DNA of 64,000 nt from Escherichia phage 4E10. Made by a program: the position numbers and the translations under genes. Positions 56,826 to 63,076 of this stretch are shown one piece after another; the stretch's first letter is position 1; each line of letters opens with the position of its first letter. The stretch is from the sequence record OQ689735.1, one strand, 5' to 3'. The notes beneath the pieces are model-generated. The model was not told where the DNA came from, did no database searches, and saw only the letters and a list, made by a program, of their open reading frames with translations.

Positions 56826-57011
56826 TTAAAGCGTATTCACATAAGCTATTAATTCGTTTTCTTTCTTATCAAACCGATCAGCAAATTCTTCTTGCTGATC
56901 GGGAGATAGCGGGCCATATTCATCATAAAAGGTGTTTGCTTCTGTATGCTCATCTAGAAGTTCATGGATAAGCTCAAACAATTTATCTTTTTGTTCTTTG
57001 CTTAGGCTCAC
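56826..57011 (-). CDS. small acidic hypothetical protein
   Basis: 61-aa ORF. Confidence 0.45.
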   Translation of the reverse strand: MSLSKEQKDKLFELIHELLDEHTEANTFYDEYGPLSPDQQEEFADRFDKKENELIAYVNTL

Positions 57012-57184
57012 AGTATGTCAATCCCCAAAAGTTTTAAAATGACTCGTTTCTGATTCATAACCGCTACGATTGAATGACCGTTGGGGTCTTTTTGACCTGA
57101 TCCAATTATAAATCCTTTTTGCGCAGAAAGTTCAATCAAAACATCAAGTTCACGTAATAATTGATATTTTAAATCATCATTCAT
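57008..57184 (-). CDS. small hypothetical protein
   Basis: 58-aa ORF below cutoff (MNDDLKYQLLRELDVLIELSAQKG...). Confidence 0.4.
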   Translation of the reverse strand: MNDDLKYQLLRELDVLIELSAQKGFIIGSGQKDPNGHSIVAVMNQKRVILKLLGIDIL

Positions 57185-57408
57185 TTTGGTTTACCTTCTT
57201 TAACGAAATCAGGATAAGGATAAAATCCTGAATAAAATCCTTCACCTTTATGATTGATGCATCCTTTATTAGAACAATAGCACCAATAATCGAAATCACA
57301 AGCCATTTCATCGTTGCATAAAGCAAAAACAACCGGCCACTTACACTTTTCACAGTGGGCATTTTTAAGAATACTAGTTTGGCTCATAACCATGTAACCT
57401 TTAAGCAA
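57181..57408 (-). CDS. Cys-rich small protein (putative zinc binding)
   Basis: 75-aa ORF with 8+ Cys (CEKCKW...CNDEMACDFDYWCYCSNKGCINHKG). Confidence 0.5.
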   Translation of the reverse strand: MLKGYMVMSQTSILKNAHCEKCKWPVVFALCNDEMACDFDYWCYCSNKGCINHKGEGFYSGFYPYPDFVKEGKPK

Positions 57409-57596
57409 TATTCTTCTACATGTTGTTTACGACCTTTCCTATCAATAAAGGTATATTCAACGAATGTTCCAATATAGTCTTTATCTACATCATGTGGACT
57501 ATTAATTGGGCATTTAGTACGGCAAATGCGTTCCCATTGACGAATAATTACTGCTTTGTTTTTAGGATCAAACGGATGCGGGTAATGTACTTTCAT
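57384..57596 (-). CDS. small hypothetical protein
   Basis: 70-aa ORF. Confidence 0.45.
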   Translation of the reverse strand: MKVHYPHPFDPKNKAVIIRQWERICRTKCPINSPHDVDKDYIGTFVEYTFIDRKGRKQHVEEYCLKVTWL

Positions 57597-58047
57597 AATC
57601 CACCACTATTAAATCAATATCAGGAGTAAACATACCGATTAATTTAGAAACCTTATCCCAATCGCCGCCAGCAATACCACAACCTATGCGTGGAATGTAA
57701 ATTACCGGTTTAAACAAAAGGATTTCTGCCTGTAGATTTAATTCTATCATGCAGTTTACTAAAGCACCATAATCAAGATTAGGACCCGGTTCGTATTGCG
57801 TATACAAATTATAGCATATACCAAATCCCGTAGGATTATGTTTAAAAACAATAGACATATCGCCTAATTTATCACGAGAACCGTACTCGGTAGTGGTTTT
57901 ATCTATTTCTAAAATTTTGGGATAGGCTCTTGCTAATTGACCTGCTACGCCAGAGCCCATTGTGTGGAAGCAATTGCACCCGTGCGCAATAATATTACCT
58001 TGAAGAAATAGGGCGACAATATCGCCCTTGATATATTTTACAATCAT
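57568..58047 (-). CDS. macro-domain protein (T4 tk.4 position)
   Basis: 159-aa ORF; macro-like motifs IAHGCNCFHTMGSGVAGQLA and IGCGIAGG. Confidence 0.6.
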   Translation of the reverse strand: MIVKYIKGDIVALFLQGNIIAHGCNCFHTMGSGVAGQLARAYPKILEIDKTTTEYGSRDKLGDMSIVFKHNPTGFGICYNLYTQYEPGPNLDYGALVNCMIELNLQAEILLFKPVIYIPRIGCGIAGGDWDKVSKLIGMFTPDIDLIVVDYESTLPASV

Positions 58048-58385
58048 CTAGTACTCAATCCTCGATTATAAGAATCTACCAAACGGTCAACCATTGAATG
58101 ACAAGCGGCTTTATCTTTCTCCTCCGCAACTGAACATTCTAATGTATTCCACTTTTTAGCATATCGTTTTAATAATGTATCGTTTTTGTATCTGCTTGAT
58201 TTATCTCTTTCTCCGTCTTTATATGCATATATTAATTTCTGTGCAAATTCAGCTTGGCATGCTTTATTTTTCCCACAATAATCTGCCGCAGTGCGGTTTA
58301 CATACTCTCTAATTTCAGTATATGATGTATCTGCTAACGCAGAAAATGAAATTAATCCTATACATAAAACCAAAATTTTAGTCAT
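58044..58385 (-). CDS. secreted hypothetical protein
   Basis: 113-aa ORF with cleavable-looking signal peptide. Confidence 0.45.
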   Translation of the reverse strand: MTKILVLCIGLISFSALADTSYTEIREYVNRTAADYCGKNKACQAEFAQKLIYAYKDGERDKSSRYKNDTLLKRYAKKWNTLECSVAEEKDKAACHSMVDRLVDSYNRGLSTR

Positions 58386-58923
58386 TTACTATTTCCAAAA
58401 GTTTATTATTTTTAAGGTAATTAGCCTTTTCTAGGACTTCAGAAGCATATTTAGAACCTGCTTTAACATTCCATCCCGAATTATAAGAGGATATCGCCTT
58501 TCTTATATCGCCCTTATGTATATTTAACCAATAAGAAAGTTCAATGTACGCCCAGGAAGCTGAATTGGACCGTTTATTCAACATTCTTTTTATTTCAGTA
58601 TCGGTCATATTATAACCAAGTTCCTTAACTCTCGCTCGCATTGTCGGCAAATAATTTTGGAACATTCCATAGGCATGATGCTTTGGTTTAGATTTTAAAT
58701 TAACTCCGGCAGAGCTTTCTTGCCATAAAATAGCAGCCATTATATGACCTAATCCGCTCTTGTGGATATTTTTGTGTGTTTTATATTTTCCATCCTTAGA
58801 AAATTGTTCCCCGAATTGATACGCGTAACGCATGTTATCGAGTTGGACATTACTGAAAGTATGCTCGGAGCTATGTGCCATCATTGAAATGGCCAATAGA
58901 CCAGCGAGTAGTGCTTTTCTCAT
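58378..58923 (-). CDS. putative periplasmic lytic transglycosylase-like protein
   Basis: 181-aa ORF with signal peptide; SLT-like segment GMFQ by weak motif. Confidence 0.45.
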   Translation of the reverse strand: MRKALLAGLLAISMMAHSSEHTFSNVQLDNMRYAYQFGEQFSKDGKYKTHKNIHKSGLGHIMAAILWQESSAGVNLKSKPKHHAYGMFQNYLPTMRARVKELGYNMTDTEIKRMLNKRSNSASWAYIELSYWLNIHKGDIRKAISSYNSGWNVKAGSKYASEVLEKANYLKNNKLLEIVND

Positions 58924-58930
58924 GCTTACC

Positions 58931-59392
58931 TCATTGAGTTTTAATTACTGCTTTAGAAGCCTTTCCTGGTAAACGACGACTGTTGATAATTGCCATTCTA
59001 CATTGAAGTGACGGGTCTTTGAACTTCGCATTAGGTTTACAAACTGTAAATCCAAGCCAAAGATTTCCATCTGTGATTTCTAAACGTCCAGGACGATATT
59101 CAACCCCATCAATAAAATTCTCGTCAATGTCAGGACGCGGAGGCATACTCAGGAATTCATTAACTTCTAAAACATGGTCTTTTATTTTGTGGAATAATTC
59201 AAAAACATATGTCTCATCAATCTCCCGTTGAATTGCACGATCAAGAAGATGCTGAGAATATTTTAGATGAAACGATGAGACCCCTGCTGCTTTTGATGCC
59301 TCACGAATCTCATTGTTAATTTGACGAAACTCCGACTCAAAGTGACGACGAAGCTTATTTCGACGGATAAAAACTTCTGTATTGATAGTCAT
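58931..59392 (-). CDS. regB: RegB endoribonuclease
   Basis: 153-aa ORF; matches T4 RegB. Confidence 0.85.
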   Translation of the reverse strand: MTINTEVFIRRNKLRRHFESEFRQINNEIREASKAAGVSSFHLKYSQHLLDRAIQREIDETYVFELFHKIKDHVLEVNEFLSMPPRPDIDENFIDGVEYRPGRLEITDGNLWLGFTVCKPNAKFKDPSLQCRMAIINSRRLPGKASKAVIKTQ

Positions 59393-59451
59393 GTTATTCT
59401 CCTCTTAACTGATAGAAAAATTATACCACAGTCAAGAGGAAAAGTAAACAG

Positions 59452-59772
59452 TTATTCTTTAAATCTAATCAATTTATTCATAGACTTTGAAACTTCTGCA
59501 CGGACCTCATGTAAGTTTTTAAGCTGTTCAAGACGCTGCTCATAATAAGCAATTTCATCTTCTTCGAGACAGTCCTGTGAATCTTCTTTAAGATAGCGTG
59601 CATAGTCCTGGAAAGCGTTACGGATTACTTCCTGGAAATCATCAAGACTTTGAATTTTCTTAGGAGCAGCAGATACACGACGAGGGGCAGTATAATACTC
59701 ATAACCAAACCCTGCGCTTAATTGAGCCATTAGTATTTTTCCTCTGGTTGGAACACTGCACGACAAGCCCAC
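59452..59772 (-). CDS. hypothetical protein (vs.3 position)
   Basis: 106-aa ORF; start uncertain. Confidence 0.45.
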
Positions 59773-60032
59773 ATACTGGCTTCTTTGAGTTTCGTTTTAG
59801 CAATAGTTAACTGATCGAGGCTTTCAGCATAATTCTTTGCGAATTCATAGTCTTCACAATTATCTAGTGCTTCCCAGAATTCGTCATATAAAGCGTCAAA
59901 GATAAGTCCTAAACGAACTTCAGCATCTTTGATAGCATTCACTTTACCGATTTTCTCTTCAGTATGTGGCTTATAACCCTTAATGTCTTCAATCATATTT
60001 GACTTCCTCACCAGTACATAAATCGTATTCAA
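59730..60032 (-). CDS. hypothetical protein (vs.4 position; possible Acb2-like)
   Basis: 100-aa ORF; start may be internal (MIEDIKG); function by position only. Confidence 0.4.
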
Positions 60033-60210
60033 CTAAACGAATAGGTTCATGAATGCCATATCCCTGAACAGAAATTTCTGTCGTAGGATAAATTCCACTA
60101 ATATCACCCATATTCCACGCTTCATTAAATTGCTGTTCGCCTGAATTACTAAACCATTCTGCGAAAGCATTTAGCACATCTTTAGAACCTTCAATAATTA
60201 TCTTTGCCAT
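59989..60210 (-). CDS. small hypothetical protein
   Basis: 73-aa ORF. Confidence 0.45.
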   Translation of the reverse strand: MAKIIIEGSKDVLNAFAEWFSNSGEQQFNEAWNMGDISGIYPTTEISVQGYGIHEPIRLVEYDLCTGEEVKYD

Positions 60211-60572
60211 TACAGACTCTCAGTAAAGGTACGAGCAATAACGTCGCGCTGCTGTTCCGGAGTCAGAGAGTTAAAGCGAACTGCATAACCGGATACACGG
60301 ATGGTCAGCTGCGGATATTTTTCCGGATGCTTAACTGCATCTTCCAGAGTTTCACGACGCAGAACGTTAACGTTCAGGTGTTGACCACCTTCAATTTTAA
60401 CTGTAGGTTGTGGCTCAATTTCAATTTCACGGGCATGCAAACCATAGAAAATTTCTGGGTCTACAAAAGAGTCCTCTTTAAAGGTTTTAGAGACAATAAT
60501 TCGTGCTTGAATACCATCTTCAAAATAAATAGTACCTTTATGTGTGCCTTCAAGAATTTGATATGCTTTCAT
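60210..60572 (-). CDS. GrcA/YfiD-like autonomous glycyl-radical cofactor
   Basis: 120-aa ORF; C-terminus [25 protein letters not shown] matches the glycyl-radical motif; visibly GC-richer, host-like codon usage. Confidence 0.7.
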
Positions 60573-60579
60573 ATAAACC

Positions 60580-60960
60580 TCAATTAGAAAATAAATTTAT
60601 CCAAGATTGTTCTTTAATTAAAAATGGCTCAGAATCATATGCCATTAAACTTTGCGTAATTAATCCTTTAAAAGGTCCATCAATAAATTCCATGGTAAAA
60701 TATGGAATTTTATTCATTAGCCGTGCATTAGGAGCAGTGCACAAAACTCTGCATCCTTTGAATACGCCTTTTTGTAATTTGTATTGCTTGGGATAAAATT
60801 CGCTCAAAATGTTATTATTTGCCAAAATTTCAAAATGATTTACCAATTTATTTTTAATAGTTTTTGGCGAAAAATAAAGATATTCGAAAAGCTGTGTATC
60901 TGTCATCATTGCATTCCGATTACGAAAAACTGCGGACGAGTAATACCACCAATGCAACAT
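60580..60960 (-). CDS. hypothetical protein
   Basis: 126-aa ORF. Confidence 0.5.
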
Positions 60961-61445
60961 TTACTATTACAGCAGTAGTGTACAGTGTCAATATGGACAC
61001 TATAAATCTTATCCATATCAGGAGATTTGACAGGCTCATCAATTATATACAAAATTCGCGAAAGCGATAAACCTCTGAACTTGCTTCCTTTATTACCAAT
61101 AAAACTGCGCACAGAATCAGTAAATAAACGAAAACGTATATCATCATTAGAATAACGCGAAAATTCCTTTTTGATGTTATTTGCAGAAATTTTAGCGTAA
61201 GCTGAAGTATTAGAAAGAACAATAACTGTTCCGCCATCATACAGCCAATTAGCAGCAAAGTTAGTCACAGCAATTGATTTGCCGGATTGACGTCCACCAT
61301 CTATGCGAAGTGTGCAGTACTGTTTGAGTAAGTCTTCAAATGGCGGGGTATATTCGTTTTTACAAATTTCTTCTACTCTAGCATCAGAATGGTGTGTAAA
61401 AGCATTCATCAGGGATAGATAAGGACCAGTTAAAAATGTTCTCAT
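60906..61445 (-). CDS. P-loop-containing hypothetical protein
   Basis: Track ORF 60906..61493 trimmed to ATG after GAGAGAA (MRTFLTG...); GGRQSGKS P-loop-like. Confidence 0.45.
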   Translation of the reverse strand: MRTFLTGPYLSLMNAFTHHSDARVEEICKNEYTPPFEDLLKQYCTLRIDGGRQSGKSIAVTNFAANWLYDGGTVIVLSNTSAYAKISANNIKKEFSRYSNDDIRFRLFTDSVRSFIGNKGSKFRGLSLSRILYIIDEPVKSPDMDKIYSVHIDTVHYCCNSKCCIGGITRPQFFVIGMQ

Positions 61446-61586
61446 TTTATTCTCTCTAAATTTGGGCCATTCCGTGGCGCATGAATTGTCCATTTCTGTA
61501 TTTACCCATTACCGCACTCAGGCTCGACCTTATTACAGGTTGGCGGGAATCCCTCACAAAATCATGAGGTCCAGGTTGTTCCCATA

Positions 61587-62060
61587 TTATTTGAATGATT
61601 TGACGTACTGAATAGAACCTTTACTATTCACAAAGGCAATTTTACCATTTTTGTTATACATGGTAGCAGTACGCTGATAGCCATAAGTTTGTTTACCAGA
61701 TTGATAACCAACTAATGCAAAATTATCTTCGCCCATTTTATTCTGCTTAGCGCGGATACGTTCATGACCGTGCGCCATAAGAACCTTAGCGTCGCCAGTT
61801 GCAATGGATCTACGAGTTTTTTCATCTTCAACTGTATTAACAAAGTCGTCAAATGAATCAAATTTAGCATGAGATTTATTATACAGTTTTCCATCTACTG
61901 CATAATTATATCCCTGTACATCCATCTCAACTTCTGTACCATCATCCAATACAGCAGTGATTTTTTGACCTTTTTTAAATTTCAAAAGATCAGTAAAAGA
62001 TTCAGCAATAATTTGAGAATTAATAGCTGCTTCAGTAATAAATTCTTGATATGTTTTCAT
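61587..62060 (-). CDS. head internal protein (IP family)
   Basis: 157-aa ORF; N-terminus MKTYQEFITEA is the IP capsid-targeting sequence. Confidence 0.7.
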   Translation of the reverse strand: MKTYQEFITEAAINSQIIAESFTDLLKFKKGQKITAVLDDGTEVEMDVQGYNYAVDGKLYNKSHAKFDSFDDFVNTVEDEKTRRSIATGDAKVLMAHGHERIRAKQNKMGEDNFALVGYQSGKQTYGYQRTATMYNKNGKIAFVNSKGSIQYVKSFK

Positions 62061-62069
62061 ATGTTTCCT

Positions 62070-62486
62070 TTAAATGTAAATATTTTTACCGTAATACTTG
62101 TACCAATGTGGTTTCATTAAAATTTTTTCATCAAGTCGTTGTTGACTCAATTTAATAGCTGATTTGCATGGATTATAATCATTTTTCCATTCTGCTGGAA
62201 TATCGCTGATGTCAGGAACTTCAGTATCTTTTATACTAAACCCGCGTTTTAAGCATTCCGTTATAATGTCTGATTGACGCTTTCGCAAAAATTCTAACTT
62301 ATCGTAAAAGAAAGTAACATGACCAGAACCTAAAATAAACTCGGAAGATATTTTAAAATCTTTAACCCGCTTACCATTTGCCACATGTTTACGAACTATA
62401 CCAAAAACACGCGGCAATTCACGGTATTCTGCGATTAAATGTTGATCAGCAAGTTCAGATACTAAAGTCAAATTAATACGAGTCAT
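62070..62486 (-). CDS. denV: endonuclease V (pyrimidine-dimer DNA glycosylase)
   Basis: 138-aa ORF; matches T4 DenV ([17 protein letters not shown]...). Confidence 0.9.
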
Positions 62487-62545
62487 TTTATCCCTCCAAG
62501 TAACTGTGAATATACTATCACAATTCTAGGAGAAAGTAAACAACT

Positions 62546-63076
<531 letters not shown>

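Follow-up and report, generated by a model that had tools for sequence, protein, structure and literature searches.

Does the minus-strand ORF at 59730..60032 of the window, i.e., of the whole 64,000-nt stretch analyzed here, encode an anti-CBASS cyclic-nucleotide sponge of the type known as Vs.4 or Acb2 in phage T4? The initial annotation had proposed this from gene position, placing the ORF in the interval between regB and denV where T4 vs.4 lies. The placement was confirmed by the gene order, which is the same as in T4 from regB through vs.8. The family assignment, a guess from synteny, was borne out by near-identity to T4 Vs.4, by matches to the solved structure and to the corresponding protein families, and by the retention of all ligand-binding and hexamer-interface residues. 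Identity to a solved and characterized protein settles the question: with very little room for doubt, the region 59730..59996 (minus strand) is the vs.4/acb2 orthologue of a Tequatrovirus (T4-like phage) and would encode a cyclic-dinucleotide sponge.

Identity and Boundaries of the vs.4 Gene

The window protein and T4 Vs.4 (NC_000866, 63078..63344) are identical in 87 of 88 residues, the sole change being C50Y. The alignment to T4 Vs.4/Acb2, suggested earlier as a check, is thus near-identical, and similarity to the Acb2 family is clear. In a phmmer search against PDB sequences, the best match was 7UQ2 (E=8.1e-56, full length), the entry for "Vs.4 from T4 phage in complex with cGAMP." The Acb2 chains of Pseudomonas phage PaMx33 (8H2J and 8IXZ) were matched next, also at full length (E~0.03); in these alignments, Y8 and K23 pair with the PaMx33 residues Y11 and K26. 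The protein belongs to the Acb2_Tad1_hairpin family (Pfam: PF24729; score 71 bits, gathering cutoff 27, E=9.2e-20; residues 7-83 covering the full profile, 1-58). It also matches phrog_717 (E=3.8e-32), the PHROG in which homologues of Vs.4 were previously located (Jenson et al., PMC10097602). Nothing in the sequence contradicts the vs.4/acb2 reading, and the function is deduced from near-identity to the experimentally characterized T4 protein.

Nucleotide identity between this gene and T4 vs.4 is 95.9%. Of the codon differences, 10 are synonymous and 1 is non-synonymous, a ratio that indicates a functional gene under purifying selection. Homologues were found by tblastn in 1237 phage records, 9 of which have an identical protein (identity band of at least 99%). 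Both the codon differences and this distribution identify a real coding sequence rather than a chance ORF. The overlapping plus-strand ORFs in the ORF list are only 31-74 aa long; being short and unsupported, they were rejected as the feature, the minus-strand evidence being decisive. An Rfam scan of both strands of 57000-63000 gave no match, hence no structured-RNA alternative to the gene.

The ORF exists exactly at the coordinates of the initial annotation, where the ORF list of the window gives a minus-strand frame of 100 aa from TTG. The start of vs.4, however, is almost certainly the ATG at 59996 and not the TTG at 60032. From this ATG, the coding sequence comprises 267 nt (88 aa and TAA) and encodes a product of 10.3 kDa with a pI of 4.7. 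The choice of start follows from several observations: T4 vs.4 is annotated at 267 nt, the same 88-codon length; the crystallized T4 protein comprises residues 1-88; every aligned homologue (six genera) begins at that Met or with at most 1-4 extra residues; a Shine-Dalgarno-like GAGGAAG is located 6 nt upstream; and the 12 extra codons of the TTG start overlap the 3' end of vs.5. On the minus strand, the sequence 5' of the start is ...GGTGAGGAAGTCAAAT-ATG. Within the 36-base extension, 59997..60010 are the last sense codons of vs.5, and the 8-nt overlap of vs.5 with vs.4 is 59989..59996. The extension is probably not translated as part of Vs.4.

Table 1. Features of the vs.4 locus and its surroundings in the window.
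Feature	Coordinates	Strand	Basis
regB	58931..59392	-	Gene order compared with T4
vs.3, 92 aa	59452..59730	-	Gene order compared with T4
TAATG stop/start overlap of vs.4 (TAA 59732..59730) and vs.3 (ATG 59730..59728)	59728..59732	-	3' context TAC TAA TGG CTC
vs.4/acb2 coding sequence	59730..59996	-	87/88 identity to T4 Vs.4; PDB 7UQ2; PF24729; phrog_717; codon differences
Extension of the mechanical ORF by 12 codons to the TTG, probably not part of Vs.4	59997..60032	-	ORF list; T4 annotation; homologue alignment
Shine-Dalgarno-like GAGGAAG (putative function)	60003..60009	-	Sequence; 6 nt (TCAAAT) 5' of ATG 59996
vs.5, 73 aa	59989..60210	-	Gene order; phrog_1986 end to end
vs.6/grcA, GrcA-like glycyl-radical gene	60210..60572	-	Pfam Gly_radical
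vs.7, vs.8	Between vs.6/grcA and the Ip4-like gene; vs.8 region 60906..61557	-	Gene order
Ip4-like internal-protein gene, 157 aa	61587..62060	-	phrog_3155, full length
denV	62070..62486	-	Gene order

The neighborhood of vs.4 (Table 1) follows that of T4 (NC_000866), in which regB, vs.3, vs.4, vs.5, vs.6 (GrcA), vs.7, vs.8, and denV are found in the same order and on the same strand; the exception in the window is the Ip4-like gene. By BLASTN, the region ~57383-61587 is collinear with T4 tk.3 through vs.8 at ~93% identity. The window belongs to a Tequatrovirus, and a 25-kb piece of it is ~96% identical to many T4-like phages of Escherichia, Shigella, and Citrobacter. The 901-bp locus has a counterpart, at 99.9% identity, in an unannotated contig of Escherichia phage ECO95 1-6-1. 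For vs.3 and vs.5, no Pfam family was found above the cutoff, and their PHROG matches are of unknown function only. The genes are tightly packed, with spacings of -1 (vs.6/vs.5), -8 (vs.5/vs.4), and -1 (vs.4/vs.3). This overlapping arrangement from vs.6 to vs.3 is of the usual T4 polycistronic, translationally coupled kind, and the TAATG overlap suggests translational coupling inside the polycistronic cluster.

Several neighbors differ from their T4 counterparts. In the window, vs.5 has its full 73 aa and runs 8 nt into vs.4, whereas the frameshifted vs.5 of the T4 reference stops 36 nt short of vs.4. The window vs.5 resembles that of RB32; the T4 reference protein (58 aa) agrees with it only up to residue 17, beyond which it is read from a different frame, corresponding to a 45-aa ORF at 60033..60170 in the window. 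The T4 reference allele thus looks frameshifted relative to the family consensus. For vs.8 (60906..61557, minus strand), the start annotated in T4 is in a different frame from the N-terminus in the window, and the segment RDSRQPVIRSS... is found in a separate short ORF (61456..61557). Since the phrog_1488 profile begins at MRTFLTG, the N-terminal extension of T4 vs.8 may lie outside the conserved protein. In addition, the vs.8 product weakly resembles the large terminase in the P-loop region (phrog_2, E=6e-6; motif GGRQSGKS).

The Ip4-like protein encoded in the gap between vs.8 and denV has the N-terminal capsid-targeting sequence MKTYQEFI, with which T4 ipII and ipIII also begin. These two genes, located in T4 between denV and e, are missing in the window. 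The same internal-protein layout is found in phage teqhad, where the gene is named putative Ip4, and the site between vs.8 and denV is a known polymorphic internal-protein locus. The denV gene itself has ~78% nucleotide identity to T4, in contrast to 93-94% for the flanking genes, and is a mosaic patch beside this variable locus. On the other side of the cluster, the tk.4 orthologue (57568..58047, minus strand, 159 aa) matches phrog_335, annotated as "phosphatase"; in the T4 annotation (NC_000866), a phosphatase motif of the A1pp (macro-domain) kind is assigned to tk.4. A domain of this ADP-ribose-related type could bear on anti-defense.

Outside Tequatrovirus, a 78%-identical homologue of vs.4 was found in Escherichia phage nepoznato (Phapecoctavirus; locus L004, 295..564). 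This phage belongs to Stephanstirmvirinae, outside Straboviridae, which suggests horizontal transfer. In several genera of Straboviridae, the vs.4 homologue adjoins grcA (vs.6), and in Klebsiella phage phiA85 (locus L006, 295..576) it also adjoins regB. The phiA85 homologue is labeled "RegB-like RNA endonuclease," and in most public records of T4-like phages vs.4 is labeled "hypothetical protein." The vs.4/acb2 of the window is an already known gene and a natural allele of a published protein, the structure, ligand affinity, and anti-CBASS phenotype of which were published in 2023. The value of the assignment is chiefly correct annotation, including the true start and length of the gene, which differ from those of the mechanical ORF. 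A confident call also aids host-range prediction, as resistance to cyclic-dinucleotide CBASS and sensitivity to Panoptes would be expected.

Binding Residues, Ligand Range, and Fold

T4 Vs.4 is a hexamer binding three molecules of 3',3'-cGAMP with a Kd of ~31 nM (Jenson et al., PMC10097602). In this complex, Y8 and F82 stack on the bases, and Y8, H11, K23, and R79 make polar contacts (PMC10097602). All six cGAMP-contact residues (Y8, H11, K23, S74, R79, and F82) were found at the same positions in the window protein. Loss-of-function alleles known for T4 Vs.4 are S74N, T12I, and A77I (PMC10097602); T12 is also kept in the window protein. The hexamer interface of T4 Vs.4 is formed by L29, F33, A66, A73, and A77 (PMC10097602), and all five are retained, a comparison that concerns the residues and not the assembly.

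The PaMx33 protein has two extra pockets for cyclic trinucleotides, built on R67 and T74 (PMC10312549). In contrast, T4-Acb2 binds cyclic dinucleotides (3',3'-cGAMP with a Kd of ~84 nM) and does not bind cA3 or cAAG (Cao et al., PMC10312549). This is attributed to D61 in place of the PaMx33 R67 and to Y37, A57, L60, D61, and T64, which crowd an unkinked helix; T4-Acb2 with D61R still does not bind cA3 or cAAG (PMC10312549). In the window protein, Y37, A57, L60, D61, T64, and T68 are all unchanged. Of the PaMx33-type second pocket, which goes with a kinked helix, only the T74 equivalent (T68) is present; the equivalent of R67 is D61, and the helix is of the T4 type, without the kink. Because these T4-type blocking residues and T68 are unchanged, the window Vs.4 is predicted to be a cyclic-dinucleotide-only sponge that does not bind cA3 or cAAG.

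A single-sequence AF2 model of the protein (pLDDT 80.5) contains two helices, 13-45 and 50-81, joined by a loop at 46-49. The terminal tails (residues 1-8 and 86-88) have pLDDT below 50 and are disordered in the model. A two-helix hairpin was recovered by Foldseek against the PDB, with 7uq2 chains on top (E=3.6e-9), followed by the Acb2 entries 8h2x and 8h2j. The TM score of the monomer against 7UQ2 chains is only ~0.56, probably because the tails that build the pocket become ordered only in the interlocked hexamer.

Nine homologues were aligned, namely those of the window, T4, RB32, members of Phapecoctavirus, Kanagawavirus, Jiaodavirus, Pseudotevenvirus, and Slopekvirus (one each), and Escherichia phage vB_EcoS-716R3, an unclassified phage with a siphovirus name; the alignment reaches down to 31% identity. 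Among these sequences, residues 1-36 and 66-88 are strongly conserved, and residues ~37-65 are hypervariable. The residues G7, Y8, N20, K23, A66, E72, A73, M75-R79, V81, and P84 are invariant in all nine. Position 50 is occupied by C, Y, D, L, G, S, and others. Helix 2 of the AF2 model begins with residue 50, which places this position at the hairpin tip, opposite the end that carries the N- and C-terminal ligand residues. C50Y is a conservative-looking natural substitution and, judging from the alignment and the model, is most likely neutral.

Expected Action, Expression, and Alternative Readings

Gene identity, conservation of functional residues, fold, and purifying selection were established on the window itself, and the further steps follow the T4 literature: by analogy with T4, we infer hexamer formation, ligand binding, an anti-CBASS phenotype, and transcription within the denV-to-regB cluster. 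The 88-aa product, predicted to be a hairpin of two helices with a short tail at either terminus, would form an interlocked hexamer with three pockets, each located between two protomers. Each pocket would take up one 3',3'-cGAMP or another cyclic dinucleotide with an affinity of tens of nM. Y8 and F82 would stack on the bases, cGAMP would be held through hydrogen bonds and salt bridges from Y8, H11, K23, and R79, and S74 would be located at the ligand interface. The signal of the CD-NTase would be sequestered rather than degraded, CBASS effectors such as the phospholipase CapV would stay inactive, and the phage cycle would be completed in CBASS-carrying hosts. All of the corresponding activities have been demonstrated for T4 Vs.4, namely cGAMP binding, inhibition of CapV, and a CBASS-specific knockout phenotype, with a ~50-fold loss of titer on Cap2-mutant CBASS cells (PMC10097602). 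A phage gain of about the same size, ~50-fold, would be expected on hosts without the Cap2-conjugation boost of cGAS output.

The same binding activity would make the phage sensitive to Panoptes, a decoy-nucleotide system. T4 Acb2 binds the Panoptes decoy 2',3'-c-di-AMP with a Kd of ~62 nM, which leads to release of the OptE toxin (PMC12657218). The T4 protein is necessary and sufficient to trigger Panoptes, and T4 escapers carry loss-of-function mutations in acb2 (PMC12657218).

No promoter was located directly 5' of vs.4, and the timing of its expression therefore rests on T4 data; according to a meta-analysis of transcriptomes, expression of T4 vs.4 is mainly middle/late (bioRxiv 10.64898/2026.03.30.715471). 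A sigma-70 scan of 58800-62600 gave 14 sites, with 14.1 expected by chance. A search of 59400-62600 for the exact T4 late (TATAAATA) and MotA-box patterns gave no match, and the minus strand of 59900-62600 contained neither a MotA-box nor a late-promoter consensus. With one mismatch allowed, the only perfect late motifs were 63074..63067 and 63061..63054 (minus strand), 13 nt apart and just 5' of the inferred start of e, the lysozyme gene. Between this pair and vs.4, perfect late motifs are absent, and read-through transcription of the vs.4 cluster is possible. The best sigma-70-like site of the minus strand (59448..59420; TTTACT, a 17-nt spacer with an extended TG, TATAAT) is a strong one; it is found downstream of vs.4 and upstream of regB, within the 59 nt that separate vs.3 from regB, and is plausibly the early promoter of regB.

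The alternatives to this account concern the single substitution, the length of the product, and the identity of the target. C50Y, the only non-synonymous difference from T4, might make the hairpin or the hexamer less stable or change the range of ligands, leaving a true orthologue that is an ineffective sponge. This is very unlikely, as residue 50 is far from the ligand residues, column 50 is hypervariable among functional-looking homologues, the identical Y50 protein recurs in the 9 records mentioned above, and the codon differences point to continued purifying selection. An N-terminally extended Vs.4 of 100 aa with different properties, started at the TTG that the mechanical ORF reaches, is extremely improbable. 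Apart from the T4 annotation, the crystallized construct, the Shine-Dalgarno-like sequence, the homologues, and the overlap with vs.5, all of which speak for the ATG, Y8 needs a nearby free N-terminal tail to form the pocket (PMC10097602).

There is likewise only a slim chance that the main natural target of the protein is not CBASS but another nucleotide messenger, e.g., the 3'cADPR of Thoeris. Within the Acb2 family, some members are inhibitors of type I Thoeris whose ligand is 3'cADPR rather than cGAMP (bioRxiv 10.1101/2025.08.24.671296), and T4 Acb2 takes several cyclic dinucleotides, including 2',3'-c-di-AMP (PMC10312549, PMC12657218). However, in the Thoeris-type Acb2_43, the stacking Tyr is replaced by L6 and V7 on a beta strand (bioRxiv 10.1101/2025.08.24.671296), whereas Y8, F82, and K23 are all retained in the window protein, which shares 99% identity with T4 Vs.4, a protein of known CBASS-directed activities (PMC10097602). 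A reading that leaves the sponge function in place concerns the hypervariable tip (residues ~37-65, with C50Y among them): diversifying selection might act on it to escape a host factor recognizing the sponge, or the tip might tune the affinity for decoys, e.g., 2',3'-c-di-AMP of Panoptes. This reading derives from the pattern of variability, the tip changing freely while the pocket is fixed, and is highly doubtful; if true, the Y50 allele would differ from T4 Vs.4 toward such counter-counter-defenses. A cyclic-dinucleotide sponge of 88 aa directed against CBASS is the preferred reading.

Comparison with Known Sponges

Among the known systems, Tad1 (Thoeris anti-defense 1) shares with the window protein the PF24729 hairpin domain and the strategy of sequestering the signal. 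Tad1 proteins are larger and bind gcADPR. Tad1 was absent from both the sequence matches (phmmer against the PDB) and the fold matches (Foldseek), all strong matches being to Vs.4/Acb2.

The Acb2 protein of PaMx33 (p26; 8H2J, 8H2X, and 8IXZ; Huiting et al., 2023; Cao et al.) has the helical-hairpin fold in common with the window protein (Foldseek probability 0.99-1.0), as well as the pocket Tyr (Y11/Y8) and Lys (K26/K23) in a full-length alignment, although the two proteins have only ~24% identity. The sponge mechanism, a hexamer with three cyclic dinucleotides (PMC10312549), is predicted to be the same in the window protein.

The closest system is T4 Vs.4/Acb2 itself (NP_049728; PDB 7UQ2; Jenson et al., 2023, Nature 616:326), of the same 88-aa length and encoded in the same slot between vs.3 and vs.5. 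Its cGAMP-contact, hexamer-interface, and cA3-pocket-blocking residues are all as in the window protein, and the window allele differs from it by C50Y at the tip of the hairpin and by the 10 synonymous changes.
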